A DNA stretch of 64,000 nucleotides from the NCBI GenBank assembly GCA_000091205.1, contig AP006483.2; one strand, given 5' to 3'. Every line of letters starts with the position of its first letter. Position 1 is the first letter of the stretch. The stretch is from Cyanidioschyzon merolae (lineage: Eukaryota). Below, piece after piece: positions 1,201-64,000 of this stretch. Made by a program: the position numbers and the translations under genes. The notes under the pieces were generated by a model, which did no database searches, had not been told where the DNA came from, and was given only the letters and a program-made list of their open reading frames with translations.

Positions 1201-1400
1201 CTTCCCCGGATGCCTCCATGAAAACCATCATCGGGTATGTACCATGCATGGCGATGATGCGTTATTCAGTGAGAGGGAAATGCAAGCCTGCACGCCTTGC
1301 CCGAACGCCTCTATGAAAACCATCATCGGGTATGTACCATGCATGGCAACGATGCGTTTATCAAAGAACCCGGGCTCGCGTGCTGCCTCGCAGCTGGTAC
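1201..1400. repeat. Imperfect direct duplication with ~100-bp period; ~55-bp core (ctccatgaaaaccatcatcgggtatgtaccatgcatgg...) at 1211-1262 and 1311-1362
   Basis: Two near-identical ~52-nt blocks 100 bp apart, read directly from the sequence; each contains GTATGT. Confidence 0.6.
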
Positions 1401-12689: not shown

Positions 12690-12852
12690 AAAAACTCCAG
12701 TATCTAACCAGTAGGTTCTGCAACTGCTTCCCTGCGCACAAGTCGGCGCGATAGAGCACGCCACACCGATCGCCTGCTTATCGATGCACCGACGTGCACA
12801 AGTCTCCCAGTCTTTTTGACCGGCTCCCTGTTACCGGTTTCAACTTGTTCTT
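12690..12852 (-). ncRNA. Candidate omega-RNA scaffold region: conserved tail immediately 3' of the Fanzor-like ORF
   Basis: Sequence downstream of the stop stays alignable between the two copies (e.g. gacgtgcacaagtctccc vs gatgtgcagacgccccc; caactgcttccctgcgcacaagtcggcgcg vs gaacgcttctcaaacgacgaacgtcgccgcc). Homology decays near 12700. Contains the local hairpin TGCAC-GTCG-GTGCA. By analogy with TnpB omega-RNAs overlapping the ORF 3' end. Confidence 0.3.
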
Positions 12853-15042
12853 CTACGTTTCTACCTTGAGAGGCTGACCGACAAAGTTGTCTCTCGTCAG
12901 TTCCAGGAGTCTCTTCTCCAGCACGGCATAGCTCTTTATATTGATAGAAGCACTAAAGTCTCGGTTCACGCACTCCAGGCGTTTCTCGTCGCCGCTTGTA
13001 CTCACCAGTGCAGGGAGTCCTCGAACCTGTGCCCTGCTTTCCATTTCCTGCCCTTCCGTCACCGCTCCGTACTTTTGGATATCCCCAGGGCTCCTTTGGC
13101 ACTTTTCCATCTCAACCCTCTGAAGTGTACACCCTAGCTCGTGATGAATGGATGACGTTCCGAACGCATTTATCAGTATCGAAACGAAAAGGTGTGCGCA
13201 GTCCTTGTACGCTCGTGTCGACGGAGCTGGTATACAACCTTTTGTGGACGCCCAGCGTCCTGATCCGTATGCTAATACGAGCATTTTACGCTTGTCCTCC
13301 TTGAGGGCCCTCAACTCATTGAAGAACTTGTCAAATGCACGCTGCTTTCCTCTGTGCAGACGCATATGCAGACGAGCCCATCTGGTCTTGGTGTACTGTT
13401 GCCACAGCGCCTCCCAATGAGCAGTACAAACTTTCATGAATTCCAGAAAAGCCTCAAAGTCCGCTCCTCGGCTAGTCACCTCGCTCAAAGCTTCCAGGTG
13501 CTCTTTCACTCCTCGATTCTATTCCTTAATTTTTTCCTCGCGTTCATTTTTCCGGATTCTCGATCGTATCTTGCTCTCGAGAAATTTAAAAGACACATGT
13601 CTTCTGACGTAAGCTGCCGTCAGTGCCATCTTCCGCACGCTTGGGTGCTGCGATGGTCATGATATTCGTGTCCCCAGGGTCCGCGCCAACGACATTGTCG
13701 TTCTCCTGGACCTCCTGCATCACAGGATCCGCCTCGTATATATGTTCATGTTTCGTCGCGGGCGAAGCCGGGGACGGAACTGGACGATCTACCTTCAAGC
13801 ACTTATAATCTACAAATATGGCTACTCCATCACTTTTGATCATCCCAGGGAATAACTTTTGCTTGCTCACTTTGAGGCGTTCGAAATCGAACATATTCTT
13901 CCAGTACGTCTCCCGGTTTTCACCGGAGAACTCGAAATTCCTTACATCGAACTCTGGACTGATCTCCTTCATGATGCCATGAAGGACGCTCGAGTCGATT
14001 GCCACAATATCTGACTTGACGGTGCACAACGGAGCGACATGGAAGCGCTTACCCATTAGGGCAGCCTCCCGTCTCTCCGACTCTTCATTTTTTCCCCACT
14101 CAGCTTCATCTCTGCCTTGCGTTCGAGTTCTCGGTCCAAAAACACAAAATACCGTAGAATGAGGCGATAGTATCTTTCCGTATCCTTTTTCAACTCTGAT
14201 ATCTTTTCTACTGGATTCGCTAGCCCCAGTACCGCACGACGCTCTTGAATAGACGCACGGATTCCAGAAGCTTCATTCCTTCTCATGTGTGATGTCTTCT
14301 TGTCTACGGATTCGATCCTCTGTTCATTCTCCCTATCGTTCGTGATGCCATCGATGGTGACCCATCTCGCCCTGTGAGGCAGGGCCGCCTATAATGCAAA
14401 CGCGGTGCGTATCATGAAACGTTCGAGGTTCATAGTCATATCGCTCATCAGGTACGTGGGGTACTTCATCGCTCCGTAGGTGCGAATTCGCCAGTCTCCC
14501 CTCTATCGAGTACCGTTGAGGCGGTATTCGGCGTACTTTTTGTGCAGTATACACACTCGCGCATTTTTCGTCGACATATCCCAGGTGCTTACCATCCGGT
14601 AGCGTATAACGGTCTCGTTGAAAAATTCCTCCGGAACCTCGACTTTTTTGGTGTCCGTCACGTTGTTGTATATCTCTTTTACCAAATGCACTAGTACTGG
14701 AAAAGCCTTTACAATACTCAAGGAGTACGACTCGACACGGTTTCCGATGGCCTCTCGCAACTTCTGCTTGTACGGATCCTTGATACATCCAAGAAAACGA
14801 GCTTTCACTACCATCTCGTCGTACTGTCGTCTTTGATGCAGGCATAGACGTCTGGGATCCTGTCTCAGCTTCTTGGACGTGTCTTGTTCCTCTTTGCTCG
14901 GCACTGTTCTCCGTTTTCTTCCGGCAGCCGGTGACACCAGGCCTCCAGGATCCTCTACTTCCTTCTCCACAACTTGCCTTTTTTCTATAATTTTAGATTG
15001 AATGCTCTTTGAACGCCTCTGCTGTAAACAGTGTAAAATCAC
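12853..15042 (-). pseudogene. Fanzor/TnpB-like RNA-guided RuvC endonuclease gene (~730 codons), interrupted by 2 in-frame TAG codons and 3 frameshift points
   Basis: Segments 15042-14503, 14286-14056 (same frame, TAGs at 14503-14505 and 14389-14391), 14056-13586 (frame change at an A6 run near 14075) and 13509-12853. RuvC-I NVVGADPGDTNIMTIAAP (Asp 13679-13681). TS/Zn-ribbon remnant SSIHHELGCTLQRVEMEKCQ. RuvC-III ECVNRDFSASINIKSYAVLEKR (Asp 12958-12960), the hallmark xRDxNAAxNI of TnpB/Fanzor. Confidence 0.6.
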
Positions 15043-16020
15043 TTGAATTCACTAACTTGAGGGTCGAAGCATAAGTGAACTGAAAACTATACTTTGTTAT
15101 GACTTGAATGTAAATACAAGTTGTGCGTTAGACACCAAGTCAACGAATGATCAGGATCGCATATCCCTTCAATGCCGAGATGCTCGTCGCGTCTGATGCC
15201 TCCAAGATGCGGAAATGCGCTAACCGACCGGACTATATAGAGCAAAGAACAGAAACGAACCATTAAATAGCAACGAGATGGCAATTTCTTTCCCCTCTAC
15301 GGTAAACGTTAGAAAATGGCAAACGCTTTCCGTATAATCGAATGTCTACAGGTGGCATGTCCCGCGTGCCGGACGAGTCTGCAGGGCTAATGCTTCGTGC
15401 TCGCCCCAGTGGCAGATGCTTTATTGAGACCTGCGCAACTCGTCCGAAACGCTGCTTATTCTGGGACTAGGAGCGGCTAGCTTGCATCTGGGCATCGCGC
15501 TTGTCTCAGCGGACTCCTCGTGTATTCCTTCGCGCTGCCGCATGCAGTAGATCTGTCTGAACAGATTCCAAGCCCCCAGAATAATAATGAATCGCGACCC
15601 GGTATCGCGCTAGCCACGCCTCGAGCCAACGTCATCACTCGCATGGTAAAAACGATCTATCTCCGTGATGCTTGTGCTCCAGCGGCATAGGCGCTCCTGC
15701 AGGTACAGCACGACAGGCACTCGGCGCTCGATCGAACGCACAAAACGAATTGTATATCCGAAAAGAAGTATAGGTCATGCAACTTGGAGAAAGGATGCAG
15801 CAGCACGATGTACGCCTCCTCGAAAGCCAATATCCATCCAATCCGCAACCTGAAATCCAAGGTCAACGGACACTTTTCAGCCATCGACAGAATTCCCGCT
15901 GCGCTACGCCGCGCGTACCCGCAGGCTGCGCGCAGGCGCCCCGTTTCCAATCGATTCGAGCGTTTTCAAACGCAGTGCTCCGTATAGGCACGAGTTCCAG
16001 CGCCAAAAGTGCGTGATAGA

Positions 16021-16320
16021 ATGCCGGCTCAGCAGATACAGTACTCGGAAAAATATTATGATGATACATACGAGTACCGTCACGTTATTCTGCCCCCAGA
16101 TATTGCGCGTCTTTTGCCGAAGAACAAACTTCTCAGCGAGGCAGAGTGGCGGAGCCTTGGCGTGCAGCAGTCACGGGGCTGGGTTCACTACGCTATCCAT
16201 CGACCAGAGCCCCATATTCTCCTATTTAGACGCCCGTTGAACTACTCGCAGGGTGCTACTACTGCGACGACGGGGCTATCGCAGAACCCTTCTGAATCTG
16301 CCTCACACGCCGTTCCGTGA
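16021..16320 (+). CDS. CKS1: Cyclin-dependent kinase regulatory subunit CKS1/Suc1
   Basis: [73 protein letters not shown] is a near-perfect match to the CKS family across the whole domain. TGA stop. Confidence 0.9.
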
Positions 16321-18862: not shown

Positions 18863-19702
18863 ATGGGTAACCGACCCTCCACGGAGCGACGGCTGGCGGG
18901 TGATGCAACTCGGCAACCGCCACCGCCGCCACCGCCTGGCAGGTCTGTGAATGCACGCAACGGGCCGACTTCATCGACGTCGACCACGTCAGTACCGTGG
19001 ATGCCGCAACAAGCTCCAGGCCCTGCATCTGAGTCTCCGCCAACCTTTACAATGGCGGCAGGCACGCGACACATATACGCACCGAGTCTGCCGATACGGC
19101 CGCTGACCGAAGTACCCTACTATCCGTACCTGCGGTATCGGGTTGTTGTCGAAGACGAGTACGGTTCGTTGCTCGTAGTGACACGGGAGGGTCTTCGTCG
19201 TCAACGGGATGCCATTCGAGTTGCTTGTGAAACGGAAGCAGATCCTTACGCACTCATCGCGCTGGCCACGTGGCAGCAACGCAAAGCACGCGTGAGTCCA
19301 GTGGAGCTCGACCAGGTTTGTCCGCCGCAGCGCTTCGCATCGCTGGAGGCCAACGACGCCCACACTGTCGAGACTACAGCTGCGCAGACTTGATCTATCT
19401 GTCTGGAGAACTTCGCACCGGAGTCTGCTGTTCGAAAACTGCCCCGATGTGGTCATGTTTTCCATGACGATTGCATTCGCGGTTGGGCATGCCACAAGCG
19501 TGCACAGTGCCCGGTGTGCCGAACCTGGGTTCTTGACGACGCTGACATGTTGCGACGTTCCATGGCCGAGGCAGCGATCAGGGCTGAGCTGCAACATGCA
19601 GCCCTTGTCGAAGAACGAATACGGGAGTACTTGCGTCGTCAGGTTGCTTTATCCAGAGCATGCGGTTGCCGAACCGATACACAGGTTCCGAACGGAACCT
19701 GA
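18863..19702 (+). CDS. RNF11-like RING-H2 E3 ubiquitin ligase (N-myristoylation MGN, Pro-rich/PY motifs, C-terminal RING-H2) with an in-frame TGA at 19391-19393 in place of the first zinc-ligand Cys
   Basis: MGNRPS... N-terminus, PPPPPPP and VPYYPY motifs, then QT-[TGA]-SICLENFAPESAVRKLPRCGHVFHDDCIRGWACHKRAQCPVC. This reads C/U-x2-C-x15-C-x-H-x2-H-x2-C-x11-C-x2-C with the CIxxW hallmark. Upstream and downstream ORFs are in the same frame, separated only by the TGA. Confidence 0.55.
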
Positions 19703-48642: not shown

Positions 48643-49751
48643 GTCTAGTCTCGTCTACTCCAGGCTAGGCAACACAGAAAGCACACACATGGCTAGCTTT
48701 ACTGTGAATCCAACGGACTCGTGTACCGGTCAGCTGTGACATCTGGACAGTTCCTGGTCTCTCCGCTGCTGCGCTCCTTCTATTCGCGTTTGTTTTCAAC
48801 TCCGCCTACCTAAAGCGTCCATTCCAAGCCGAGCGCTCGACGCCAGCATACGCAACAAATACCGTACCACTTTTGAACAGTATCATAGCGTCGAGGCTTG
48901 CAAACGAAGACAAGCGCTGCATCCAGCGGCTGCGCACGCAGTCGACGCGCTCTGAGCCTACGGAACACGTCAACGCTGCACGTGCGGAAGGTCCTGCTCG
49001 TTCCTCGTCCGAGCAGACGAGTTACCAAAGCGCTCAGGGTTTCGATGACGCTCCAGCTACGCGCGTTTACTCCAGAGTGATACAATTACTAGCGCGCCAA
49101 GTCGGCTGAGTAGCCTCGTTACAACGATTCTACTCTGCTCTGACCGCGAAAAGCTTATGCTGGATGTGCATACTCCGCCAAGTCATACGCTAAGCGTAAC
49201 GAAGAAGTTGCTTCTTCCCTCGGGGCAAACGTATGCGCCCAGACTGAGAGCTCTCGCGACGTCCGCACCTCACGTCAGGATTCGGAGCCGGTTCAGCTCG
49301 GATCGACGCGCCAGCACAATGCCAAAAAGTTCTGTCTGCACAGGTTTAGGCCACAACATTGAAAGTACAACGCATTTCAGTTCGTTGCAGTGCAGTTTCG
49401 AAGACAACAAGGCGTGCCTGCGGTAGTCCCAGTGGAGTCATACGCTGCGAACTTGCCACTGCGGGGAAACCGCACCATATGACCATTGCGCAGCAGTGGT
49501 GCTCTCGGCGAAGCGTTCACGGGAAACTTGCTGGAGTCGGGGTCTCGGAACACTTCCAGGAAGCCTGCTGAACAAGCGACTCACCCTCGATCTATACCAG
49601 GGAAGCAGCCTAGGCGAACCGCTGTGTCCGACACACACACACACGTAAAGACTGGCAAAGGTTGTTCCGGAGCTCGTGTCTTCGCAGTCGTACAAACGGC
49701 TCGCGCCGTCGAACGAGGCTTCCAAGAAAGCGCGTACGCAGCTGTTCCGCA

Positions 49752-52700
49752 ATGCCGCTTCCGTCAGCACAGACGCGTCGCTTTATTAAAAGAGCAAGAG
49801 GTGCTGGTGCCACTGGGCAGGCCTCGGTGCTCCGCGTCTCCCGGGAGCACTACTTGCGGAGTGATCTACCGCTGCCTCCGGAGCCAGCCCTGCGGCCGTT
49901 TCTCTTGGTACCCGACACGAACGTAGTGCTGCGTGCAGCGAGCCTTTTCGAACTCGATGCCGTCCAGGAGGTTGTCTTTTTGCAGACCGTGCTGCAGGAG
50001 ACCCGCAAACAAAGTCCAGAGACCTACGATCGCATACGGCGACTGTTAGCTTCCCCGGAAGCGAAGCGCCGACACCTCTACCTCTTCAGCAATGAACACT
50101 GTGCAGCAACGTTCTCGGAGCCACTAAAGGGTGAGTCACCAAACGACTACTACGACCGGCTGATTCGCAAGTCTGTGGCGTGGTTGAATACTCAGTACAA
50201 CGCACTGCAGGGGCCGCGAGTGGTGCTCCTCACCGAGGATCGCGAGAACGCTCGTCGAGCCAGAGACGATGATCATCTGGTTACCTTCAGCCTCGCGCAA
50301 GTGGATGCATGGTGTGCGGGCGCTGCAGACACGCGAGTTAGGGACCTAGTGGCAGACTCTGGCGGTCACCATGATGCAGCACTGAACGAAAGCGCTTCGG
50401 AAAAAGCGCATGCAGCACCTGCGTCCAGGACGGAGTCTGCGCCCTACCCGGAGTACTGGCCAGTCGACAAGGTTGAACGCGCGCTCGCCAGTGGTAAACT
50501 GTTCCGTGGCGTATTTCGTGCAACCATGTATGAGCCGTTGGAGAGCGGTGTAGTGGTCATTCGGTCGCCAGCGGGAAATGCGGAGCCCCAGAAGACACAG
50601 GTCGCCACACAAGTGCAGCCAGCGCTGCGCATTCGGGTCCAGGGCGCTGCCGCCGTGAATCGTAGCGTTGACGGAGACCTCGTCGCTGTGCTACCACTGG
50701 ACGGCGTTGTCGACGGAGCAGCCAGTGCTGGTCGAAATGCGATACCGACCATCGACGCAGACGCCTTCAGTAGCGTGACAGAGCAGGTGGTGACAGCTGC
50801 CTCTGCACTGGGATCCGAGTCCTCGGATCCGCTGGCTTCGACGCCTTCCCAGGGGCCTCGTCTTGGGAAGATTGTTGCAGTGCTTGAGCGCCGTTGGCGT
50901 GCGCAGTACTGTGGATCGCTGCAGGCCAAATACACCGCAGATACATTGAGTTTCCAAGGTCGCAGACGACACCTCTTTTTGCCGGTGGATCGGCGGATAC
51001 CCCCGATCCTACTGGAGACACTGCAGGCAGCGTCTCTCTACGGCAAGCGGGTGGCTGTTGCTCTTGATCGCTGGGATACCCAATCGCGTTTCCCGGTTGG
51101 TCATGTGGTCAGCGTGCTGGGGCGCATTGGCGATGAGCAAGTCGAAACGCAGGTTTTGCTTCTGGAGAACGGCATTGTGACCCGACCGTTTTCGGAGGCG
51201 GCGCTAGCGTGTCTGCCTCCACCAGACTTTTCCGTTGCGCCTGCCCCGATGGATACCACGCTGGTTGGTCGCCTCGATTTGCGGTCTATGTTTGTTTTCA
51301 GTATCGACCCACCGGGGTGCACCGACATCGACGATGCGTTGCACTGCCGCCTCGTGGATCGGAGCAATGGACAGGGAGCAAATGCGAGAGCGTCGACTCG
51401 CCTTCAAGTTGGCGTGCATATCGCTGATGTGGCGAGCTTCGTTCGAGCAGGGACAGCACTCGATGAAGAGGCACGGGAGCGTGGCTGCACTGTCTACCTG
51501 GTGGACCAGCGCATCGAGATGCTGCCGGCGCTGCTAACGAGCAACCTGTGCTCGCTGGTTGCGGGCAAGGATCGGTATGCGTTCTCGGTTCTCTTCGAGT
51601 TGGACGTTGAATCTGCCCAGATTAACGATGTCCAGTTTACACGCAGCATGATTAGGTCACGAGCATCGTTGACCTACGAACAGGCTCAGTTGATGCTGGA
51701 TGCATTGGTTGTCGACAAACAGAGCGCGAAGCAACTGGGGATACCGCCCGAGCTAGGCGAAGCGCTGCCGCTTCTAGCCCGCGTTGCAGGAAGACTGCGG
51801 GCTGAACGACTCGCCAATGGTGCGCTCATTCTCGCGTCACCGGAGATCCGTTTCGAGCGAGCGGATGGTGAGAGCCCGAGTCCCAGCGTTGGTTCAGGCT
51901 CCAGTTGTCGCAGTTTTGACACGCACCACCTCGTCGAGGAGTTTATGCTGCTCGCAAATGTGACGGTAGCTAAGCGCATTGTGCACCAGTTTCCGCACTC
52001 GGCGTGCTTGCGCCGACATCCTCCGCCGAGTGTCGAGCAGTTTGAGCCACTGGTACGGGCGGCAGCAGCATACGGAATCGAGATGCACGTGGATTCGTCC
52101 AAGGCGCTTGCGGCAAGTCTCGACGCCGTCTCAACGACCTCAGCTGGCCAAGAGGACCCACTGCTGGAAGAGCTGTTTCGGATGCTTGCAACTCGTTGCA
52201 TGATGCAGGCTGCATACTGCTCCGCTGGCTCGGCTCCTGCGTCATCCTACTACCACTACGGACTCGCAGTGCCGCTGTATACCCATTTCACGTCACCGAT
52301 ACGGCGCTATGCCGACATTATTGTACATCGCCAATTGGCAGCAAGCTTGGGGTATGAGGATGCTCCTGGTGAGTTGCTCATGAATGAGCAAGTCGAACGT
52401 ATCTGTGAACACGTGAACGAACGCTATCGCAATGCACAGGCCGCAGGACGAGCGAGTTCTGCGCTCCATGTGTTGCTCTGGTTCCATCGGCAATGCCAAC
52501 GCCCAGCTCATGAAGCACGCGATACGGCCTCGATGCTAGAGACAGACGGCCGAATTCTGCGATTCTTGTCGACTGGATTTGTGGCGTACCTGCCCAAGTT
52601 TGGTATTGAGGGCGTCGTTCGCGTAGACGGTGCAGAGACCTCCTGGGTATTGAGCCCTGATTCGCAAACGATCCTCCATAAGGACTCGGGAGTGACGTAC

Positions 52701-52898
52701 CGTATTTTGGGCGCTTGTCGTATTCGAATTGTTATTGATGAAAATGCTGTCGGTGCCGATCGTATTCGATTCGAGCTGCTTCCTAGGAACGCCAACAACG
52801 CCGTTCAAAGTCGAACGACGTCGGGCGTGTGCAGTAGTGGCGGCAACCGCGCCCAAGACGAAACGTCTCCTACTGACGTACAGATGCCACCAAAATAA
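49752..52898 (+). CDS. DIS3: Exosome catalytic subunit DIS3/RRP44 (PIN plus RNB exoribonuclease)
   Basis: N-terminal VLRVSREHYLRSD and PIN motif LLVPDTNVVLRAASLFE. RNB core FSIDPPGCTDIDDALHC...VGVHIADVASFV...TVYLVDQRIEMLP. S1-like C-terminus. Met at 49752. Confidence 0.85.
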   Translation: MPLPSAQTRRFIKRARGAGATGQASVLRVSREHYLRSDLPLPPEPALRPFLLVPDTNVVLRAASLFELDAVQEVVFLQTVLQETRKQSPETYDRIRRLLASPEAKRRHLYLFSNEHCAATFSEPLKGESPNDYYDRLIRKSVAWLNTQYNALQGPRVVLLTEDRENARRARDDDHLVTFSLAQVDAWCAGAADTRVRDLVADSGGHHDAALNESASEKAHAAPASRTESAPYPEYWPVDKVERALASGKLFRGVFRATMYEPLESGVVVIRSPAGNAEPQKTQVATQVQPALRIRVQGAAAVNRSVDGDLVAVLPLDGVVDGAASAGRNAIPTIDADAFSSVTEQVVTAASALGSESSDPLASTPSQGPRLGKIVAVLERRWRAQYCGSLQAKYTADTLSFQGRRRHLFLPVDRRIPPILLETLQAASLYGKRVAVALDRWDTQSRFPVGHVVSVLGRIGDEQVETQVLLLENGIVTRPFSEAALACLPPPDFSVAPAPMDTTLVGRLDLRSMFVFSIDPPGCTDIDDALHCRLVDRSNGQGANARASTRLQVGVHIADVASFVRAGTALDEEARERGCTVYLVDQRIEMLPALLTSNLCSLVAGKDRYAFSVLFELDVESAQINDVQFTRSMIRSRASLTYEQAQLMLDALVVDKQSAKQLGIPPELGEALPLLARVAGRLRAERLANGALILASPEIRFERADGESPSPSVGSGSSCRSFDTHHLVEEFMLLANVTVAKRIVHQFPHSACLRRHPPPSVEQFEPLVRAAAAYGIEMHVDSSKALAASLDAVSTTSAGQEDPLLEELFRMLATRCMMQAAYCSAGSAPASSYYHYGLAVPLYTHFTSPIRRYADIIVHRQLAASLGYEDAPGELLMNEQVERICEHVNERYRNAQAAGRASSALHVLLWFHRQCQRPAHEARDTASMLETDGRILRFLSTGFVAYLPKFGIEGVVRVDGAETSWVLSPDSQTILHKDSGVTYRILGACRIRIVIDENAVGADRIRFELLPRNANNAVQSRTTSGVCSSGGNRAQDETSPTDVQMPPK

Positions 52899-53422
52899 CA
52901 TACCATCGGAGGAAATTCCCTTATACCTCCCCTGCGGTATTCCTCGGCGAGCTACGTCGAAGCTCATCTACGATCGTTGTGATCTCTAAGCGCAGCGCTG
53001 CGGAACCCTTGGCACTATGTACCGGCGAAGTTGTTGTTCGAAATGGTCAGAGATCTGCCTAGTTTCTGAAAAGGCATTGAGCGCTTGTGCTAGTTGCGCT
53101 GAACGCTAGACAATCTACGGGAGATTTAGCTCGGACTCTGGACAATTGACGGGCGGTCACTCGTGCCGCTACGCAAAAGAGGTTTTTGACTGGATACGCA
53201 CACTTACGCGATCGATTCTAGCCGATGACGTGATCGGCAGCTTTCGCACCGGAGACGTCCTAACCCAAGAAAGTACAAGGCATGTTTGTCTCTGATCCGC
53301 TGTACCAGGGCTAAAGAGTAGTTCGCTCACCTGCTGTAAGTAGAGCACCGTTTCCGCTGGGTACCGCACGTGACGGGTGCTTCGCAGCTCGATACCGTCA
53401 CCACTGCCAGCGTCCGCTTCCT

Positions 53423-54483
53423 TTGGTAATGCAGCGTTCGCCTGTAGCGCGCCGGCAGCACGCGCTGCATCTTCGAAAGGGCCCGAAGCAGTCGCAGATC
53501 GCCGTGATCACTGGCGCGTCCTCTGGGGTCGGTCTGTATGCAGCTCGCGCTCTGATCAGCAAGGGCAACTGGCACATCGTCATGGCATGTCGTGACATTG
53601 ATCGGGCGGAACGCGCAGCAAACAGCGTGAACCTTCCAAAGGACGCCTATACAGTGCTGCATTGTGATCTGGATGATTTCGCCTCTGTACTAAAGTTTGT
53701 GAGAGAGCTGTCAAGTGTGGCGCGCATCGATCACCTAGATACCCTGATCTGCAATGCCGCTATCTGGCATCCGCGGGACAAGAAACCGCGTTTCACGGTG
53801 GACGGCATCGAGAAGACCATACAGGTTTGCCATCTGAGCCATTTGCTTCTATGTCGGGAGCTGTTGCCGAAGCTGAAAATATCGCGCGGGCGCATTGTGT
53901 TTCTGACGACTCAGACACACTCGCCGAATTCGCTGCCGGGAAAGATCCCCCCGCAGGCTCGTCTCGGTGATTTGTCTGGTCTAGCCGCGGGGCTTGGTCC
54001 GCAGACGACGGGCATGGTGGACAGTGGCCCGTTTGAGCCCACAAAAGCTTACAAAGACGCCAAAGCCGCGAACGTGTTGACAATGAAGGCGCTCAGTGAT
54101 CGATACGGCCGCGACGGGGTGACCTCTGTGGCGATTTTTCCGGGATGTGTCGCCGACAGCAACCTCTTCCGCGAAAAGCGTGGCTGGTTCCGCTGCGTAT
54201 TCTTTCCGATTCTTCAAAATACATCACTCGGCAATACGTTCCGAATGATGAGGCCGGACGCCGCGTAGCCGAAGTGGCGCCCCAGGGACAGTTCCCGGAC
54301 TCGGACTGGTATTATCAGTGGCGTGGCAAATATACGGAAGGTCGACAGAAGACGAAACCGCAGGTTATTGAACCAACATACGAAATCCACAAGGCAGATC
54401 AGTTTTTCGAACTGAGTCTTGATCTGATCGACCAGGCGTTGCGGCGGCGAGGCCTCAAGTCGACTATCTTGGCCCCTGTCTAA
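53423..54483 (+). CDS. POR: Light-dependent NADPH:protochlorophyllide oxidoreductase (POR), with an apparent +1 frameshift near 54190-54200
   Basis: VITGASSGVGLYAARAL...WHIVMACRD...LDTLICNAAIW...GKIPPQARLGDLSGLAAGLG...MVDSG.FEPTKAYKDAKAANVLTMKAL...FPGCVADSNLFRE, including the POR-specific insertion loop. The C-terminal motif (SKYITRQYV...DSDWYYQW) continues in the next frame after an A4 run. Confidence 0.75.
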
Positions 54484-57271
54484 GGTTTGTTAGTGATGAA
54501 AATGAGATGCGGGCTTCGGAGCGCAGACCGCTGCTTCAAGAACAGATGTGGGAGCAACAGCGTAACGATGAGACGGCACCCCACAGTCACGATCGGATCG
54601 TGATCGGGTGAAAGGGCACTCATCCTGACGTGGTGAACCAAAATCGCTCCGCGAGTCATGAAGCGTACTGCAATAGTGATTAATATAGCTATAGCTATGA
54701 CCTACTTCGGATCGAATGCGCCAGAGTATGCTAAAATCGGTCGTCCGTGAGTGTAGAGCATATGTGCGGCCACTGCATATAGCGTATCCGCTCTGGAGTG
54801 TACGCGAAAGCGTTCAGAATTAGGGACATTTATTGTTGAATCTCATCGTGGGACCTGGTACTGAATATGAAATGCATCCGATTCTTTTGCTCCGGCCGTG
54901 AGACAGATGCATGGAATCAGGATTTCCCTGGTCCCTAGGAGCTGCCTGGGTACAGGGGATGCTACGAGTGCCCTCTTCCGAATTTGAATGGATTCTACGA
55001 GTTGCAGAGCGGTCTCTCATGTTATATTAGTGGGTCGTACCTTCCGGGCAGTGCGCTAGGACATGTCATTAGTCTGCGACAGCCGAGCGACAGCCATCGA
55101 GTGGCGAGCTAGAAGAAGCTAGACTACTACGGCACGGTGCTGACCAACACAGCCTTCCCCGTGTGTACTGGGAAAGCGGTGCCGAAGAGGAGCAACGTAG
55201 GTCGTGTTTGAACACCGCCACTACGGCGAGGAAACGGGATTTACCATCTCCACAGATTTTACCCTTTCGAGGCAGATTCTGCCAAGAAGGCGAATCGTCA
55301 AATTGAAGGATGATTTCAGCTTTCAACTTCTACTCTGGGGGATTAATTGCGAATATCTAGTTGCGAGCATGTATTTAGCTTCTGTTTCCTTTTTTCTTTG
55401 GATACAGTAGGGCAAGCAGCTGAACCACGCAAGCAGCCCGCATGTTAGATTGCGAAAAATATTGCAGAAGCTGGATCGTAGCATGAAGAAGCTCTAAACT
55501 CCAGAACGCGCCTTCACATGCGAGGAAATCCAAATAAACCCCGATGAATCCGTAGCAGCGAGCCATCGAACACAGAACAATGCGAGAGGCCCAAGGAATG
55601 GATCATGGCTCCGCTCACTGACAGAGCCGGTGATCGTGCCTCCCGCGAATCATTGGACAAAAGAGAACAAGGAATCCAGGGCAATATGTCTGGGGAGAGC
55701 GTTCAAGAAGAAAGGATATGTACTGGGCAATGTGCTGTATGAAAAGCACATTGCGAAACAGGTGCTGGCATCATTGCCTGAGCACGGTTGAAGTTCGAGA
55801 TAGAATTTGTCCGTAGACTTGGTCGCCAAGTCTCGCTGTTTGCTCGATAACTATGCGGAGATTTTCGTGGATCCTGCTGGGAAGACTGTCGGATCGCCAA
55901 AGGTATATATGGTACTTATAAAGTGCCCGCTACTCAACTAAACAGTTACGGAACGACGCCTCTGGGAATACAATTGTTTATGATGCTAGGCACCGTCTTG
56001 AAAAAGCAGCTACACATTCAGCGACTCTGATCAAGCAGGCAAACATGATCTGATTTCAGTTTTCGAGCCCCAGACGTTGGATCATTGTCTTGGCTGCTGC
56101 CAAAAGACCAATTCAGACTAGAGCATTTTCAAAGTTCAACAAGTTCCCACTCCGAAATGCGAGCATGGATATTCATTGGTGTCATGACGCCCTTGGCGGG
56201 TTACGGATCGAGGCCGACATTCATGTAGACAGTGTCATCTGCAGCAGCAGAGCTCTCTTTCCGGGGAGGGGATGTAAAAATACACTCCACGGAGGATTTT
56301 TCGGTAAATTGGATGAAACGTGAGGAAGTCTCCGATTGTGAAAGTATTCTACGCGGATCATTGGTCTGCGCCAGCCCTGCAAATGCATGGTGATGCAAGG
56401 CTTGCCAGCGGCAGTTGAAATACATGCTCAAAGCTTACGCCGAATAAGGTTAGATGAAGAAGTGACTTACGAGTTCCCACTTCGTGGGTTGATAGCTGAA
56501 GCATGGGTACGGACATGTGCGGGTGTTTTCGAGCAACGAGGGAGGGTCCCGAATCAGAGACCACATTCCTCGCGAGCAATATTGTTTAGTATTCCTCGCA
56601 ATAGAAACATTGGAGCTCACTAGTTAATGTTTCTTATCTAAGACAAATACCAATGGTACAGACCTACATAAACCTCCCAACTACTCAGCTTGGCTGTCAC
56701 CACGAGAACAGGACTGCAACACAATAAATCTAACACGGAATATTTCCACTACAATCGTCTCCCTAAAATATAAAATAGAAAATACGCCTTAGAGATTCAT
56801 CTGCCTTTCAGGTGGAAGACGAACCTCAGCAACCGATAGTTCGTTATTCGCTATCCTTCTTACCCCAAGCCATAGTCTGTTGAGCCCTGCTGACTCGCAC
56901 CTGGAAGGAGCAGTACTCGGGAGTTACTCATTCCAATGAAATCCCACTAGCCTATATATAGCTTTCAGTACCTCTCTCAACTTGGATATTTCGGACTATG
57001 AACCCCGAAATCCCTACGTCCGTTACGCTCCAGTCTCGACATCAACGTGAATTCTTCATCGCATCATGATGACTCCAATTCAAATTCCTCTGCAGTGCGC
57101 GCGCGCGTTTCGCGTTTTTGGCGCTATCACGTTGTGCGTTGTTGTTTTGGCTTTCACAAAACACGGCGGTTACGTTCGTGTTGACCATAACGAAAAAACA
57201 ATAGTGAAGAAATATTCACGCAAGAAAGAACAAATATCCGTATTTATTGGACTGAGAGAGCATCGAACGAG

Positions 57272-60007
57272 ATGTTTCGTGCTCGCTCTCTGGTACGTGC
57301 CCTGGGAGTAGCTGTTTGTCTATTGTTGGCGGCGACGTTTTCCGTTTCGCTTGTGGCTGCGTTGTCGCCTGTGAGTACGGTTAGCTGGACCTGGATAGGT
57401 GGAGAGACGGGTGTCAATAATCCTGGTAATTATGGAACGCTGAACCAGACTTCAGCAGATAGTGTTCCAGGAGGCCGTTCCGATTCAGCAGCCTGGGTCG
57501 GAAGTTCGAGCTTGGTATACTTGTTTGGCGGGCTTGGGTATGGAAACCCATATCTGAGCTACTTTAATGATCTATGGACCTTCAACTTGACCTCATATGA
57601 ATGGACGTGGATAGGAGGTTCCTCAGAAACCGACCAACCAGGAGTGTACGGCACAGTCGGCACAGGCAGCCCAAATAGTATACCCGGCAGCCGTTACGGA
57701 AGTGCGTATTGGCAGACGGACGAGCACCATTTTTGGTTGTTTGGAGGACTCGGCTTCGATGTGAACGGTAATCAGGGCGAACTGAACGACATGTGGCGGT
57801 ACGATACTGAAACGGGAATCTGGACGTGGTTCAGTGGGAATGATACTTTTAACGCCAATCCAGTCTATGGACCGAAGGATATCTACAGTCAAATTTACAA
57901 CCCCGGAGGCCGAGGTAGCGCGGCATTCTGGCTAGGCGCGGACGGTTTGTTTTGGATTTTTGGTGGTGCGCGTATTGCGTATGATCTTCTGTCAGATCTC
58001 TGGTCATTCAACCCTGTTACATTCGAATGGGCATACAGAGGCGGATCACAACTTGTTAACCAGCCTGGTAACTATAGCGCACCTGGCGTGGCGAGCAACT
58101 CAAATGCCCCAGGTGCGCGCGGCTTCTCGCATACGTGGACAGATTTTGAAGGAAATCTCTGGTTGTTCGGCGGCTATGGCTACGGAAACAGCACAGCACT
58201 AGGGCAAGGCGAATTGAATGATCTCTGGGTCTACAACATAAGCCAATCCGTATGGATTTTTATCACAGGGAATACCACTATTAACAATCCAGGATCATAT
58301 GGAAATCTCGGTGCTTTCTCCCCAACCAGTTACCCAGGTGCAAGATTCTCAGGCGTAAGTTTTGTGGATCCTTTGGGTAATCTACAGCTGTTTGGCGGTG
58401 CGGGACTCGCCAATACAAGCGAATCCTTTGGCAATTTGAACGATCTTTGGGTATTTGATATCACACTTGGTCAGTGGGCGTGGATCAATGGAAGCCAAAG
58501 TGTGGATGCTCTTTCAGTATATGGAGTTTTGAACGAATCCGACCCGAGTGTTGTACCTGGTGGTCGCTTTGGACCAGCTTTCTGGAACACCAGTGGGACT
58601 GATCCGCTCATATTTGGTGGAAGTGGATTCTCGAACACGAGCAGAGGTGGCTTTCTCAATGATGCCTTCGCTTTGAGAGAAACGTTCTTTACGCCTACCT
58701 CTACGCCTACGCCAACATCAACGCCAACTCTGACACCTACAATTACGGCAAATGCTACTGCGACCCCGACACCCACGCTGACACCTACACCAGTCTGCAC
58801 CATTGAGATCTGCGGCTCTCCAGGACAGTACACCAACCAGGACGCTTGCGAGCAAGTCGGATGCTGCTTCAACTCCCAGACAAACGCGTGCACCCTGAAG
58901 AGCGTCTCAGTGGCGTGCAGCGCTGTTCCAGTGACGCAGCGCGTCCCCTGCGGCTGGAGCTACATCTACCCCGACGAGTGCACTGCGATACCGGGATGCT
59001 GCTGGCAGCCCACAGCGAACGGCATCCTCGCGCCCTGGTGCTACTACGACATCAACCATGCACCGCAGGCTTCTGTAGCGCTGCAGGAGGTGCAGGCACC
59101 AGTACCCGTCTGCCCGTCACCGGGAGCGCAGCGCCAGCCGTGCGGCAACGCGGGTATCAACCAGTTTACATGCTATGCCCAGGGCTGCTGCTACGACTCG
59201 CAGGCGCAGAACCAGTGGGTGCAGAACGGCAAGCAGCAGAGCGACTTTGAGTCGAACCCGTACTGCTTCCAGCCCGAGAAGACGTGCGCGGTGGGCGAGT
59301 TTGAGCGCCAGCCGTGCACGAATGCGGTGAATCAGAACCAGCAGCTGAACAATAACATCAACAATAACCAGTTTGTGCGTCTGCTGAACACGCTGCTGTA
59401 CGGAGAGCAGCATCGGACGCAGCGCACGAGCTACTCGCCGCAGCAGTGTCTGGAGGCTGGTTGCTGCCTGGGGCTCGGCAACGAGTGCTTCCAGCCGATG
59501 ACCGAGTACGTGTGCCAGACCTACGGGTACGTCTCGAACTCGCTGAGCGGCACGACCGGCAACGTGTCGAACTCGAGCTATATTGCTTGCGGCCCCGAGT
59601 GCTGCAACGCCGAGACGCAGAACTGTACGTACAACCCCTTCAGCAACAACAACAACCAGCAGCAGCAGCAGCAATTGCAACAACAGCAACAACAACAGGT
59701 GCTGCTGCCGTCATTCTGTGTGTGCAAGGACCCAACGAAGCAGTGCGGGACGTACCTGATCCCTTCGGATAACCTTGTGAACAAGGTGCGTTGCTGCCGC
59801 GCTGACGAGGAGTGCATCAACAACCAGTGTGTGGTGATTAGTCCAACACCGACTCCGAGTCCCGTGGCTGTGACAGCGACACCCTCTGCGACGGTGTCTG
59901 CAACAGTCTCTGCGACAGCTTCTGCGACGGTGTCTGCGAGTGCATCAACGAGTGCATCAGCGAGTGCTTCAGTTTCAGCTTCTGTGTCGACGTCTGCGAG
60001 CGCCTAG
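57272..60007 (+). CDS. Secreted protein: signal peptide, six Kelch/galactose-oxidase-like propeller blades, Thr/Pro linker, four trefoil (P-type) domains, poly-Q/N and Ser/Ala/Thr-rich C-terminus
   Basis: MFRARSLVRALGVAVCLLLAATFSVSLVAA signal. Repeated NDLW.(F/Y)..........W.WI.G blades. TPTSTPTPTSTPT linker. Trefoil consensus R/QxxCG........C...GCC(F/W/Y)........WC(F/Y) four times (e.g. RVPCGWSYIYPDECTAIPGCCWQPTANGILAPWCYY). Confidence 0.7.
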   Translation: MFRARSLVRALGVAVCLLLAATFSVSLVAALSPVSTVSWTWIGGETGVNNPGNYGTLNQTSADSVPGGRSDSAAWVGSSSLVYLFGGLGYGNPYLSYFNDLWTFNLTSYEWTWIGGSSETDQPGVYGTVGTGSPNSIPGSRYGSAYWQTDEHHFWLFGGLGFDVNGNQGELNDMWRYDTETGIWTWFSGNDTFNANPVYGPKDIYSQIYNPGGRGSAAFWLGADGLFWIFGGARIAYDLLSDLWSFNPVTFEWAYRGGSQLVNQPGNYSAPGVASNSNAPGARGFSHTWTDFEGNLWLFGGYGYGNSTALGQGELNDLWVYNISQSVWIFITGNTTINNPGSYGNLGAFSPTSYPGARFSGVSFVDPLGNLQLFGGAGLANTSESFGNLNDLWVFDITLGQWAWINGSQSVDALSVYGVLNESDPSVVPGGRFGPAFWNTSGTDPLIFGGSGFSNTSRGGFLNDAFALRETFFTPTSTPTPTSTPTLTPTITANATATPTPTLTPTPVCTIEICGSPGQYTNQDACEQVGCCFNSQTNACTLKSVSVACSAVPVTQRVPCGWSYIYPDECTAIPGCCWQPTANGILAPWCYYDINHAPQASVALQEVQAPVPVCPSPGAQRQPCGNAGINQFTCYAQGCCYDSQAQNQWVQNGKQQSDFESNPYCFQPEKTCAVGEFERQPCTNAVNQNQQLNNNINNNQFVRLLNTLLYGEQHRTQRTSYSPQQCLEAGCCLGLGNECFQPMTEYVCQTYGYVSNSLSGTTGNVSNSSYIACGPECCNAETQNCTYNPFSNNNNQQQQQQLQQQQQQQVLLPSFCVCKDPTKQCGTYLIPSDNLVNKVRCCRADEECINNQCVVISPTPTPSPVAVTATPSATVSATVSATASATVSASASTSASASASVSASVSTSASA

Positions 60008-61189
60008 GAAGCAGCGACATCTTGAGCTCCACGGACTGCGTTGGCGGACGTGTCAACTGTTAATTTGCTCACAGTCTAGATCACGTCTATGCTGATACTC
60101 TGTTGCGACAATATTCCACTCATGTTCACAAGACCCGAGAGTACGAATGAACGAATGCGTTAATGCGGATAAATGTGCGCGGAGTGTCATCTGAGGTCCT
60201 CTTCGGGGACTGACATTCAGAGATCAGATGAACAGAAAGAATGGACCAGAATTTGCTTTTGGAACGTAAAGGAATGATTACCTCTGCCTATGAGCTTGCC
60301 CCCGATGATAGCCTTGGTGGTAATGGCGGTATATTGGTACCCTTTCTTCTCTTTGTAGTCAGAATACGGTTTCCGAGTTGCATGTAGCGAGTGTGTCTGC
60401 AGTAGGGCGTCTGGAACTGTTTTTTTAGTTTCGTTGTACTTGAGCACATTCTAGTCCTGAGGAGCGGTTCTGGAGCAAGTTTGACTCGATCCGTACAACC
60501 GCAAATTTCACCAAAATCCGATTCCTCTTGAGGAAAAGCTAATATTCGTGACGCCTGCATACGGGCTCCGGCTCCGCTTGGCACGAATGGAAGCAGGGCC
60601 GCCAGCCTCACAGCGCACTTATAGCTTGTTCTGTCGGTCGAGGCATCGTCTCGATATATTCACCACTGTTGCCTACCGTTGCTCGTAGGCTACGTCAATA
60701 AAACCGTCTGAAGTGTTGTGCTGATTTCCGGATTATGTTTATGTCTTGTACACTAGAAAAAAAACGAGAACGAAGTGGTGGTAAGCCGTGAAGACGTAGA
60801 TGCGCAGTTACCGTTACTCGGTCCAGAGGCACACCATGCCAGGCAGTCACATCCTGGGACGAGCTGTACGCTATGTAAGCATTAGCACAGCACCTTGAGC
60901 ACAGCTGGAGGCATTCTAGAAGCGGCCAGTATCGATTCTAAACAATTGATCTTGTTCTATATCATTGCAAACAAATTGGTAAACGGATCCGTTGCTAATA
61001 AATGGACACAGGGCCCTCGGAAGATAGATAAACGACAAGGCAGCTGATGATGTATCGAATACAGAAGAACTCGAGTTGCCCATTTTCCACATTTTCTGTC
61101 ACATCAGTCCTGTTACAGCCATGGCAGCGATATCTTCACGAAAAGCATCAACTATTACCACATATACTCTAGGTACTCTTCGCAAATAC

Positions 61190-61370
61190 GGTCTGAATAA
61201 GCGACGTAACGCGCCCGCACCGAACGCTTCTCAAACGACGAACGTCGCCGCCGGCCGTGTACGGTAGTGGAGGGAAAACCGCGCCTTGGACAAATCGTCT
61301 CCAACTGATGTGCAGACGCCCCCCGCCTTTCTCGACGAGCCACCCACTACTGCTTCCAACTTCTTCTCAT
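61190..61370 (-). ncRNA. Candidate omega-RNA scaffold region of copy 2 (homologous to 12690-12852)
   Basis: Conserved with the copy-1 3' tail. Contains the local hairpin CGTCT-N13-AGACG. In copy 2 this region is also open in the protein frame to a TGA at 61231. Confidence 0.25.
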
Positions 61371-63559
61371 ATAGTTCGACTTTGAGAGGTTGTCCAATAA
61401 AATCCTCTTGTGTCCACTCTGGAGGTCGTTTCTCCAGCACCGCACATCTCCGTATATTGATAGCGGCATGAAAATCTCGGTTCACGAACTCCATACATTT
61501 CGTGCCGTTGGGAGCTGTACTCACCAATACGAGTAACCCTTGAACTTTCGCCTTCCTTTCCATTTGCTCCTCCGCCAGCGGTCCGTACTTTTGCAATTTC
61601 CTCAGCGCTCTTCTGGCACTTTTCCATCTCCACCCTCTGAAGCGTGCAGCCCAGTTCTTGGTATGTATAGGACGTCCGGAACTCATATACAGGTATCGTA
61701 ACGAGACGCCGGGCGCACTCCTTGTACAGCTTCGTCGCTGGAGCTGGCGTAGTTCCTTTTCTGTTCTTCCAGCGCCCTGCTCCATACGCTTCTACGAGCC
61801 TCTGACGGTCATCCCCCTCAAAGGCGCTCAACTGATTGAAAAAATTCGCAAACGCCCGCTGCTTCACACCGTATAGATTCATTCGCAGACGAGCCCACCG
61901 GGGCTTTCTATACTCCTCCCACAGCGCATCCCAATGGGCAACACGAAATTCCATGAATTTCCGAAAAGCTTCATGGACCGCTCCGCGGCTCGTCGCCTCG
62001 CTCAAAGCTTCCAGGTGATGCTTTATTCCTGCATTCCACGTAACGATTATCATCCTTGCATTCACTACAACGGATTCTCGATAGTATCTCGCTCTCGAGA
62101 ATCTCAGCAGACGCATGTCTTTCTGGCGTAAATTACCGTCCATGCCATCTTCCGCACGCTTCGGTGCTGCGATGGTGATGATATTCGTGTTCCCAGGATC
62201 CGCGCCAACCACAATGTCTTTATCCTGCACTTCCTGTGTGGCAGGATCCGCCTCTTTCTTTCCTTGATGCTTCGTCGCGTCAACCATAAAGTCGTTATCC
62301 TGCACATTCTGTTCGGCAGGATCCGCCTCCTTCTGACCTTCATCCTTCACCGCGCCAACGACACGGTCGTTATCCTGCACTTTCTGCATCACAGGTTCCG
62401 CCTCTTTCTCTTTTTCATCCTTCACCGCGTCAGCGACAAAGTCGTCATCCTGCACCTCCTGTGTCGCAGGATCCGCTTCTTTGATTTTTTAATGCTTCGC
62501 AGAGGGCGAAGCGAAAGGCACAATCGGACGGTCCACTTTCAAGCGCCGATAGTGTACATACAAGGTTACTCCATCGGTCTCGATCAACGCAGTGAATACC
62601 TTTTGGCTTCTCACTTTGAGCCGTTTGAAATTGTAGATGTTCTTCAAGTACGTCGCCCGGTTTTCACCGGTGAAGTCATCCCTGCTAACAGTGAACACTG
62701 GACTGATCTCCTTCATGATGCCGTAAAACACGTCCGAATCGATATTCACGAAATGTGACTTGATGCTGCACATTGGAACCACGTTGAAGCGCTTACCCAT
62801 TAGGACAGCCTTCCGTCTCTCCCAATCTTCTTTTTTTTCTTCACTCAGCTTCATCTCCGCATTTCGCTCGAGTTCTCGGTCCAGAAACACGAAATAGCGC
62901 AGAATAAGACGATAGTATCTTTCCTTATCTTTTTTCAACTCTGATGTCTTGTATGTTGGATTCGCCGGCCCCAAGATTGCACGGTGCTCTTGTATAACCG
63001 AATGGATTACAGAAGTATCATTCGTGCTGTCGTTAAACGCCTTCGTGTCGACGAATTCGACATCACCTTCATGCTTGCGATCGTTCTTGATGCCATTGAT
63101 AATCACCTATACTCCTTTGCGAGAGACGCCCGGGTAAAGTGCAAACACGGCGCGTATCATGAAACGTTCTAGGTTCATTGTCAAATGGTTCGTCAGGTTC
63201 GTGAGGTTCTTCATCTCCCCATAGTCGTAAATACTCCGGTCCCCCTTGTATCGAGTACCCTCGAAGCCGTAAAAGGGATGTTTTTCGTGGAGGGCATGAA
63301 CCCGCTCGTTTTCCTCCCGCGCTTCCACTGTTGCAAGCATCAGGTATCGAATAAAGGTCTCGTCGAATAACTCGTCCAGAATCTCGACCGTTTCCATGTA
63401 CGTCACGTCGCGATACATATCCCTCGCAAAATGCATCAGCCCTGACCATGCCTTGATAATACTCTTGGAGTACGAGTCGACACGTTTTTCGATAGCGTCT
63501 CGCAAATTTTCCCTGTAAGGATGCTTGATATGATTAAGAAGACAGGCTTTCACCATCAT
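61231..63559 (-). pseudogene. Fanzor/TnpB-like RuvC endonuclease gene, copy 2: in-frame TAG (63107-63109) and TAA (62489-62491), frameshift between the Zn-ribbon remnant and RuvC-III, degenerate N-terminus
   Basis: RuvC-I IVVGADPGNTNIITIAAP. TS/Zn remnant YEFRTSYTYQELGCTLQRVEMEKCQ. RuvC-III FVNRDFHAAINIRRCAVLEKR sits in a different frame from the upstream core. Stops align with sense codons in copy 1. Confidence 0.6.
62193..62487 (-). repeat. 4 x 75-bp tandem repeat inside Fanzor-like copy 2, encoding 25-aa units that duplicate the RuvC-I beta-strand region
   Basis: atcctgcac recurs at 62222, 62297, 62372 and 62447 (75-bp period). Units encode KIKEADPATQEVQDDDFVADAVKDE / KEKEAEPVMQKVQDNDRVVGAVKDE / GQKEADPAEQNVQDNDFMVDATKHQ / GKKEADPATQEVQDKDIVVGADPGN. 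Copy 1 has a single unit. Confidence 0.75.
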
Positions 63560-64000
63560 CTCATTCTACAGTCATCTTTCCCGCCGCCTTCGACCTAGGG
63601 CCTCCCGCTTTCGGTTCTTCTTCTTTTCCTGTTCTTCTGGACTCGGCTCTGTTTTTTGTTTTTATTTCTGGCAGCAGGCGACACTGGGCCTCCGGGATCG
63701 TCGACTTGCTTTTTCATAGCTTTTCTTTTCATTTTTTTGTGTGAAAAAGAACGCTCTTTGAACCCTTCTATTATATACTGCGAGAAATCAATTGAATATG
63801 TTTACTTGAGGGTTGAGACACAATCGAACTGGAAACTATGATTTGTTACGACTTCCACGCAAATACAGCTTGCCCGTTAGAACATCAAGAAAACGTGTCG
63901 TCACGGTCGCGTTTCTCTTCGAAGGCGACAGATGCGTCGTGTCTCGCAAGTGCCATACTTGGAGATGCACGTATCGAGCGCGCCATACAGGAAAAAGGAC

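Follow-up and report, generated by a model that had tools for sequence, protein, structure and literature searches.

Does the Fanzor-like gene that runs off the end of a 64,000-nucleotide (nt) stretch of the Cyanidioschyzon merolae genome (assembly GCA_000091205.1, contig AP006483.2; this whole stretch is called the window here) still encode a nuclease, or is it the remains of a mobile element? A preliminary description had presented this locus, copy 2, as a diverged second copy of a Fanzor-type gene found elsewhere in the window (copy 1), with nonsense codons and a frameshift in its core. Our analysis assigns both copies to CMe-1A, a Fanzor1-bearing family of C. merolae described a decade ago (Bao & Jurka 2013, Mob DNA 4:12; PMC3627910). 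Copy 2 is very probably a non-functional, neutrally decaying member of this family, whose only gene encodes a Fanzor1.

Membership of the CMe-1A family

The CMe-1A family was defined by a 3169-bp consensus, to which each of about 150 copies in the 16-Mb genome is about 80% identical, and some copies were described as intact; the element has no terminal inverted repeats (TIRs), its target duplications were left undetermined, it encodes a 734-amino acid (aa) Fanzor1, and its 5′ 635 bp are 95% identical to a separate element, TE-N2_CMe (PMC3627910). We took the consensus from supplementary file 2 of that paper and aligned it to the window by blastn. Consensus positions 630-2196 align to 64000-62425 of copy 2 (82.3% identity) and 2122-3169 to 62274-61225 (86.0%), and positions 9-3092 align to 15877-12788 of copy 1 (81.5%). 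Both copies thus reach about 80% nucleotide similarity or more over most of the consensus, and they show the expected organization of a single Fanzor1 open reading frame (ORF) with neither TIRs nor transposase. The conceptual translation of either copy matches the 734-aa CMe-1 protein at 70% identity over its full length. Because they align to the consensus and share this protein identity, both are ordinary CMe-1A members and can now carry the published family name; the earlier proposal that they are old paralogs of one family is borne out by the same alignments.

Direct comparison of the two copies gives a consistent picture. When 61000-64000 was compared with the window by blastn, one other related place was found, 12832-15194 in the same orientation, with 72.6% identity over 1525 nt and 73.9% over 943 nt. 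Aligned codon by codon, 404/713 residues (56.7%) are identical, in agreement with the first estimate of 50-60% over some 700 codons, and a global alignment extends the similarity to the leader on the 5′ side (63986-63718) and to some of the 3′ tail, as had also been proposed. When tested in a proper alignment, 61225-64000 did align to CMe-1A. Four ORF fragments tile copy 2, at 63559-63107 (150 aa, beginning MMVKA), 63106-62489 (205 aa), 62455-61367 (362 aa) and, in a different frame, 61785-61231 (184 aa). Its 3′ end, first placed at 61190, lies at 61225 according to the published consensus. At the other side, position 64000 corresponds to consensus position 630 of 3169, so that copy 2 probably continues past the window end, as the preliminary description had supposed; exact look-ups of the four copy-2 ORFs and of two neighboring host ORFs returned no contig extending past 64000.

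Relatives outside the window bear on the nature of these insertions. Scanning of Joint Genome Institute (JGI) metagenome contigs yielded 311 related loci, from which the best 80 were taken, including 29 distinct full-length copies; many of the related loci come from Ga0078972, a Yellowstone metagenome (PMC8986864). A segmentally duplicated, decaying host gene family could be proposed instead of transposon insertions, in line with the absence of visible TIRs and target-site duplications (inverted-repeat search, with no TIR in 61100-64000; PMC3627910) and of a transposase next to either copy. However, likeness among the best 80 loci begins and ends sharply at common boundaries within many unrelated flanks, copies 1 and 2 have flanks that show no relationship in global alignment, and about 150 copies have been published for the 16-Mb genome. 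A neighbor-joining tree is star-like with long terminal branches, CMe-1A lying near the center and copy 1 on the longest branch. We regard a host gene family as having next to no chance of being the right explanation and treat both copies as insertions of a mobile element.

Lesions in the coding sequence

The majority consensus of the 29 full-length metagenome copies contains one intact ORF of 784 codons, from MKKQVDDPGGP... to ...SWRRLV*, and is 90.6-94.2% identical to CMe-1A. Scored against this ORF, copy 2 carries four nonsense codons and three frameshifts and has lost the stop codon (Table 1), and no uninterrupted frame leads from the family start to the family stop. As read from its codons, copy 2 is unable to make a Fanzor1 protein. 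An automatic count gives five stops, one of which (TAA, 63664-63662) arises only through the +2 insertion. The preliminary description had implied pseudogene status from a TAG at 63107-63109, a TAA at 62489-62491 and a 1-nt frameshift between the zinc-ribbon region and RuvC-III. All three lesions are present, the frameshift near 61596, where other family members read through as ...EEIAKYGPLTEEQ... (EEIAKYGPL), and the status stands; the list was not complete, since the TGA, the other TAG, the +2 shift, the –1 deletion, the additional in-frame repeat unit and the loss of the stop codon were missing from it.

Table 1. Position and basis of the features of copy 2, with copy 1 for reference
Feature	Position in window	Strand	Basis or remark
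Copy 2 of CMe-1A element, as far as the window shows	61225..64000	minus	Consensus positions 630-3169 (blastn)
Last 14 nt of TE-N2_CMe-like 5′ module, cut by window end	63987..64000	minus	GTCCTTTTTCCTGTATGG aligns to GTTCTTTGTTCTATATAG
5′ leader of Fanzor module	63718..63986	minus	Includes imperfect palindrome ~63984-63967 (GGCGCGCTCGATACGTGC)
Family start ATG (63717-63715) and Lys/Arg-rich N-terminal extension	63560..63717	minus	Disabled by +2 shift, TGA and TAG
Net +2 shift	A-rich tract 63669-63651	minus	MAFFT: 63666-63665
Nonsense TGA	63574-63572	minus	Consensus CGA
Nonsense TAG	63568-63566	minus	Consensus TAC
Nonsense TAG	63107..63109	minus	TGG (Trp) in copy 1, CMe-1A and metagenome consensus
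Nonsense TAA	62489..62491	minus	Family GAA (Glu) in both consensuses
In-frame 75-bp (25-residue) tandem repeat	62200..62482	minus	Tandem Repeats Finder: period 75, 3.8 copies, 78% matches
One additional in-frame 75-bp repeat unit	62418-62344	minus	Relative to consensus ORF
RuvC-I catalytic Asp codon GAT (VVGADPGNTNI), kept	62198..62200	minus	Invariant D484 of family alignment
Relocated RuvC Glu codon GAG (VYEFRTS; family VDEFRTS), kept	61682..61684	minus	Invariant E656 of family alignment
+1 frameshift	61588..61600	minus	Extra base in GAAATTGCAAAAG; MAFFT: 61596; private to copy 2
RuvC-III catalytic Asp codon GAT (FVNRDFHAAINI), kept, in shifted frame	61474..61476	minus	Invariant R724 D725
–1 deletion in C-terminal tail (AAAGGC-GGGGGG)	61324..61325	minus	Private to copy 2
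Family stop codon lost: CAA	61288-61286	minus	Relative to consensus ORF
Family stop position and 3′ non-coding tail to element end	61225..61288	minus	Published consensus
Copy 1 of CMe-1A, with full TE-N2_CMe-like 5′ module (15877-15231)	12788..15877	minus	blastn against CMe-1A

Decay is the rule in this family. None of the 29 distinct full-length copies is intact, each having at least one frameshift or stop, and the nearest to intact are L004 (one stop) and L001 (one frameshift and one stop). The least damaged relative, P0001 (L001 10001-12259), has a 752-aa open frame across all catalytic motifs, from which only ~21 codons at the start (one frameshift) and ~30 at the end (early stop) are missing; with an internal Met as start it might even now be functional, and its 90% cluster holds 22 member sequences. 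Copy 1, taken as the reference at first, is more decayed than copy 2, with four TAG stops, at least four frameshifts, the last ~77 bp missing and the catalytic Glu lost (INAFGTS). Window positions 13021-19319, which cover the copy 1 locus and the neighboring genes for CKS, Tim17 and a RING protein, are 99.3-99.7% identical to contigs L082, L083 and L084 from three JGI metagenomes (Ga0123519, Ga0504776 and Ga0504777), and the fragmented ORF pattern of copy 1 is almost the same in all three. This match indicates that the window's organism is present in those samples and that assembly errors do not account for the lesions of copy 1. The CKS gene of this block, of eukaryotic type, lies at 16021-16320. 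This gene, the long unbroken ORFs and G+C content of the window and its match to the metagenome contigs agree with a Cyanidioschyzon-type host; as those contigs come from hot springs, the host may be a Yellowstone strain rather than strain 10D. Two Cyanidioschyzon-type genomes, roughly 81% identical, are represented in the metagenomes.

Two other sources of stop codons were considered and set aside. Hypermutation at CpG sites or of the repeat-induced point mutation type does not fit an enrichment of CpG transitions of only 1.5-fold and a transition/transversion ratio of 1.0. Recoded or reassigned stops are excluded by the intact consensus, which is free of in-frame stops, and by the different codons at which each copy has its own.

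Selection before and after inactivation

Ratios of nonsynonymous to synonymous substitution (dN/dS) were estimated by the Nei-Gojobori method. Overall values are 0.41 for copy 2 against the consensus and 0.49 for copy 1 against copy 2, and in the RuvC half they fall to 0.26 and 0.38, respectively. Simulated neutral decay starting from the consensus, with a spectrum drawn from four-fold and non-coding sites, predicts a dN/dS of 0.82 ± 0.12 for copy 2 (200 simulations), and 10.4 ± 3.0 stops at its divergence compared with the 5 counted. We then split the differences by sharing, calling private those found in one copy alone and shared those also found in another copy. Private substitutions of copy 2 (n=93) have a dN/dS of 0.81 and shared ones (n=215) of 0.31, the means over 31 copies being 0.93 and 0.36. 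Since private changes are nearly neutral and shared ones constrained, selection acted on the source lineages and each copy has decayed neutrally since. The star-like tree and the dN/dS of 0.3-0.55 of the copies relative to the consensus had suggested selection on each copy, and the same split rules this out, only the shared class being constrained.

The neutral phase of copy 2 amounts to about 4% divergence. The preliminary description had asked whether purifying selection acted until recently, and a neutral phase of this size answers that it did not.

Start codon, catalytic core and Fanzor1 affinity

The conserved Met of MMVKA had been taken as the probable true start of copy 2. Our data place the family start 52 codons upstream, where the CMe-1 protein begins MEKEVEDPGGP... 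and the metagenome consensus MKKQVDDPGGP...; copy 2 retains this ATG, and the frame of copy 1 also runs on for 52 codons upstream of its conserved Met. The upstream frame of copy 2 looks degenerate because of the +2 shift and the two stops located there: in the MMVKA frame it reads EALGRRRRER*L*NEMMVKA, the counterparts being GDALRRRRQERQLYDEMVVKT in P0001 and REARRQRLQERRQYDEMVVKA in CMe-1. Mutation has turned the start ATG of copy 1 into GTG (14970-14968), and the open frame reported upstream of its EMVVKA is confirmed (ORF 14503-15042, ~76 codons from its GTG start). A basic motif of this N-terminal region, RPDRxxKxxxRxxxxETVVK, is conserved in relatives at ~30-40% identity. N-terminal nuclear localization signals (NLSs) have been shown for other Fanzors (PMC10530073), and the Lys/Arg-rich extension is probably one as well.

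Three elements of the catalytic core are invariant in the family alignment, namely the Asp of GADPG, the Glu of DEFRTS and the Arg-Asp of NRDFNAAINI. The family shows the Fanzor1 motif D...[TS][TS]...RD, and copy 2 keeps the codons. At the canonical RuvC-II site the family has Gly (VVAYGAG), the invariant Glu standing ~30 residues downstream in VDEFRTS, which corresponds to the rearranged RuvC-II of Fanzors, where Gly or Pro replaces the canonical Glu and an alternative conserved Glu lies downstream (PMC10530073). The zinc-ribbon region had been described as a remnant, with decay implied; the intact consensus likewise reads THHELGCTLQRVEMEKC, where two His and two Cys stand but no CxxC..CxxC, and more distant relatives have even fewer Cys and no conserved Cys pairs. 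Judged across the alignment, the absence of CxxC pairs is a property of the clade, not of the decay of copy 2. The 2013 definition of Fanzor1 includes a C4 zinc finger between the TS pair and RD, and CMe-1 was still classed as Fanzor1 (PMC3627910).

A tandem repeat of 75 bp adjoins the RuvC-I Asp on its N-terminal side, and its last unit supplies the strand that bears this residue. The number of units varies from one in copy 1 (13681-13760) and the CMe-1A consensus to three in the metagenome consensus, about four in copy 2 and five or more in L013 (5113-5491) and P0001. AlphaFold predicts this region to be disordered (predicted local distance difference test, pLDDT, below 30 at residues 376-471 of P0001).

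Searches with proteins of the family agree that the gene is of Fanzor type, as first proposed. In a large protein collection, repaired copy 2 has 56 relatives, which come almost entirely from JGI metagenomes; identity is 55-79% for the nearest, most of them fragmentary, and 28-37% for a distant full-length set. A Pfam scan of repaired copy 2 gave no match, its relatives giving only sub-threshold Cas12f1-like_TNB, and phmmer with the single sequence P0001 found no match among PDB sequences. A profile of 11 relatives matches the Parasitella parasitica Fanzor1 (9cf0; E=9.7e-12) and, weakly, the Guillardia Fanzor1. An AlphaFold2 model was made of P0001, a relative, rather than of copy 2 itself (mean pLDDT 74.3), and its seven best Foldseek matches in the PDB are SpuFz, PpFz and GtFz (E 3.5e-15 to 4.1e-13), followed by Cas12 proteins at E>0.01, the next being Cas12o at E=0.02.

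Proposed history and alternative explanations

In a model consistent with our data, CMe-1A is a mobile element of long standing, present in many copies in Cyanidioschyzon-type red algae. The ancestral element would have been ~3.2 kb long, with a ~635-bp non-coding 5′ module resembling TE-N2_CMe, a leader of ~260 bp, a single ORF of 734-784 codons free of introns and a 3′ tail of ~60 bp, and it would have had neither TIRs nor a transposase. By homology with Fanzor1 and TnpB, the ancestral protein may have been a nuclear, RNA-guided RuvC DNA endonuclease, with a guide RNA expected from the 3′ end of the element. The lineage of copy 2 would have been under purifying selection within an active master lineage before copy 2 was inactivated and gathered its ~4% of private, neutral-looking substitutions.

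Several observations weigh against parts of this account. The lesions of copy 2 are read from assembled sequence, exact look-ups of its ORFs in the public assemblies queried found none on record, and each of the three frameshifts is within or adjacent to a homopolymer run, a kind of sequence in which sequencing errors arise too. At the 3′ end, where the guide RNA is expected, RNAalifold gave a weak result for the last 400 nt (–12.5 kcal/mol, with a covariation term of only –1.05), covariation is absent from the 3′ hairpin (73.6% pairing versus 72.9% in shuffled controls), and an Rfam search for a guide RNA found no match. RNA-guided cleavage of DNA by the CMe-1 protein, dependent on a target-adjacent motif (TAM), is not reported in the literature searched.

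The position of the three indels, in or beside an A-rich tract (63669-63651), an AAAA run (61592-61589) and a G-run at 61324, would suit an intact, expressed Fanzor gene in which errors of assembly or sequencing, or spliced introns, account for the stops and frameshifts; Fanzor genes of other eukaryotes have acquired introns (PMC10530073). However, the TGA, TAG, TAG and TAA arose by four independent substitutions in conserved, alignable codons, and splicing would remove conserved residues; the 93 private substitutions have accumulated at a neutral dN/dS; 29/29 distinct related copies bear similar lesions at different positions; and the broken ORF pattern of copy 1 recurs in three independent metagenome assemblies. 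The window (G+C ~55%) contains long host ORFs without interruption, so its assembly is not generally error-prone. We consider an intact gene very unlikely.

Alternatively, the coding part may be dead and copy 2 kept as a 3′ source of guide RNA (omega/fRNA) for an intact Fanzor1 acting in trans. Guide RNAs of TnpB/Fanzor systems are transcribed from the right end of the element (PMC10432273), and copy 2 is preserved at the 3′ side as far as consensus position 3169, in the stretch best conserved relative to CMe-1A (86% vs 82%). Across 31 copies, though, the 3′ tail is the part least conserved relative to the consensus (identity 0.66-0.81, compared with 0.81 in the 5′ leader and ~0.89 in the ORF), copy 2 has only a degraded form of the consensus hairpin TGCCGCCA..TGGCGGCA, and the poor RNA signals listed above speak against such a role too. 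Metagenome copies suggest a further conserved GTTTG after 61225. The chance that copy 2 persists as a guide-RNA source appears very slim, and neutral decay of a disabled CMe-1A copy is the explanation that we prefer.

A broken copy is the expected state in a family of 150 copies that are ~80% identical to their consensus; the family has been known since 2013, and copy 2 holds nothing that would surprise a specialist. The gain lies in a corrected gene model, in which the start moves 52 codons upstream and takes in an NLS-like extension, and in a demonstration that shared and private substitutions can be used to tell selection on a master lineage from decay after insertion. The family itself is of some interest as a source of Fanzor1 from a thermo-acidophile, with a mode of transposition that is unclassified.

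Element ends and 5′ modules

All copies of the family become alike at an imperfect palindrome, and the left boundaries of more than 40 related loci cluster there. The Fanzor module always joins at this palindrome, GCGCTCAGTGAGCGC or GCGCGGTCGATACGCGC (consensus ~646-663, copy 1 ~15231), upstream of which loci L001-L081 show at least five unrelated module classes. Classes A (TE-N2-like) and B, each ~600 bp long, occur at six or more loci apiece, and the class-B module is unrelated to TE-N2. Copy 1 falls in class A and copy 2 appears to do so as well; the TE-N2_CMe-like module is full in copy 1, only its last 14 nt are visible in copy 2, and GTTCTTTGTTCTATATAG is common to copy 1, CMe-1A and the class-A metagenome copies. 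Some metagenome contigs (e.g., L017, L009 and L062) are mosaic, and chimeric assembly is possible; the module classes are for this reason a lead, not a result. One could propose that the Fanzor module is a cassette joined at a single palindrome to at least five unrelated 5′ modules, copy 2 being a class-A product, a scenario that we hold to be doubtful. If it were true and the joins were not mis-assemblies, it would point to one-ended, rolling-circle or recombination-based movement in which the 3′ end stays fixed and the 5′ end varies, and cassette joining would classify a family that has been left unclassified since 2013.

The TE-N2_CMe-like module (window ~15231-15885) contains no ORF and resembles neither end of the Fanzor module. 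CMe-1A is not a tandem of two like-ended elements, since the ends of TE-N2 and of the Fanzor module are no more alike than shuffled controls. Modules of ~635 bp resembling TE-N2_CMe are also found alone, in either orientation, near other genes (L013 9223-9801, beyond ATP synthase beta and NOP10, and L054 8704-9276), in agreement with the ~70 solo copies of TE-N2_CMe on record (PMC3627910).

A solo 3′ fragment of CMe-1A is located at 52797-52891 of the window in minus orientation (consensus ~3073-3169, 79-88% identity), at the exact edge of a 3-kb block (52793-55756) that is 81% syntenic with L065/L057. The synteny stops at the end of the fragment, which overlaps the end of an opposite-strand ORF (49662-52898). 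L065 has the same fragment (2873-2953), followed 745 bp on by a complete Fanzor module.

Neighboring sequences

On the plus strand, 57272-60007 holds an uninterrupted 911-aa ORF with a signal-peptide-like start, Kelch-like repeats, Thr/Pro linkers, several Cys-rich modules of the CGxxxxxxCxxxGCCW type, a poly-Gln run and a Ser/Ala/Thr/Val-rich tail. Its product is probably secreted or located at the cell surface, and an exact-match look-up of this ORF found none on record.

Comparison with known systems

Copy 2 has the single ORF of published CMe-1A, likewise lacks TIRs and shows what is probably the end of a TE-N2_CMe-like 5′ module; it differs in having ~4 units of the 75-bp repeat where the consensus has 1 and in being broken, whereas some CMe-1A copies are intact according to the 2013 paper.

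The bacterial TnpB of IS200/IS605 elements (e.g., ISDra2) has a RuvC nuclease core as well, and these elements resemble CMe-1A in lacking TIRs and target duplications and in having sub-terminal palindromes near their boundaries. Unlike IS200/IS605, CMe-1A has no TnpA-type transposase and a eukaryotic host, and its protein differs from TnpB in being nearly twice as long, with an NLS-like extension, a Gly in place of the RuvC-II Glu and no CxxC..CxxC zinc finger.

The Fanzor1 proteins of solved structure, SpuFz1 (8GKH, 9CEU), PpFz1 (9CF0) and GtFz1 (9CER), have the same fold as the modeled relative (target-normalized template modeling score 0.5-0.7), and they share with the CMe-1 family the RuvC triad with relocated Glu and the basic N-terminal extension, at a sequence identity of only 12-16%. 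Elements carrying SpuFz1 in Spizellomyces punctatus have 30-nt inverted repeats and a defined omega RNA of 88-90 nt, whereas neither inverted repeats nor a supported RNA structure was found here, and the predicted disordered tandem-repeat insert before RuvC-I distinguishes the CMe-1 family from the solved Fanzor1s.

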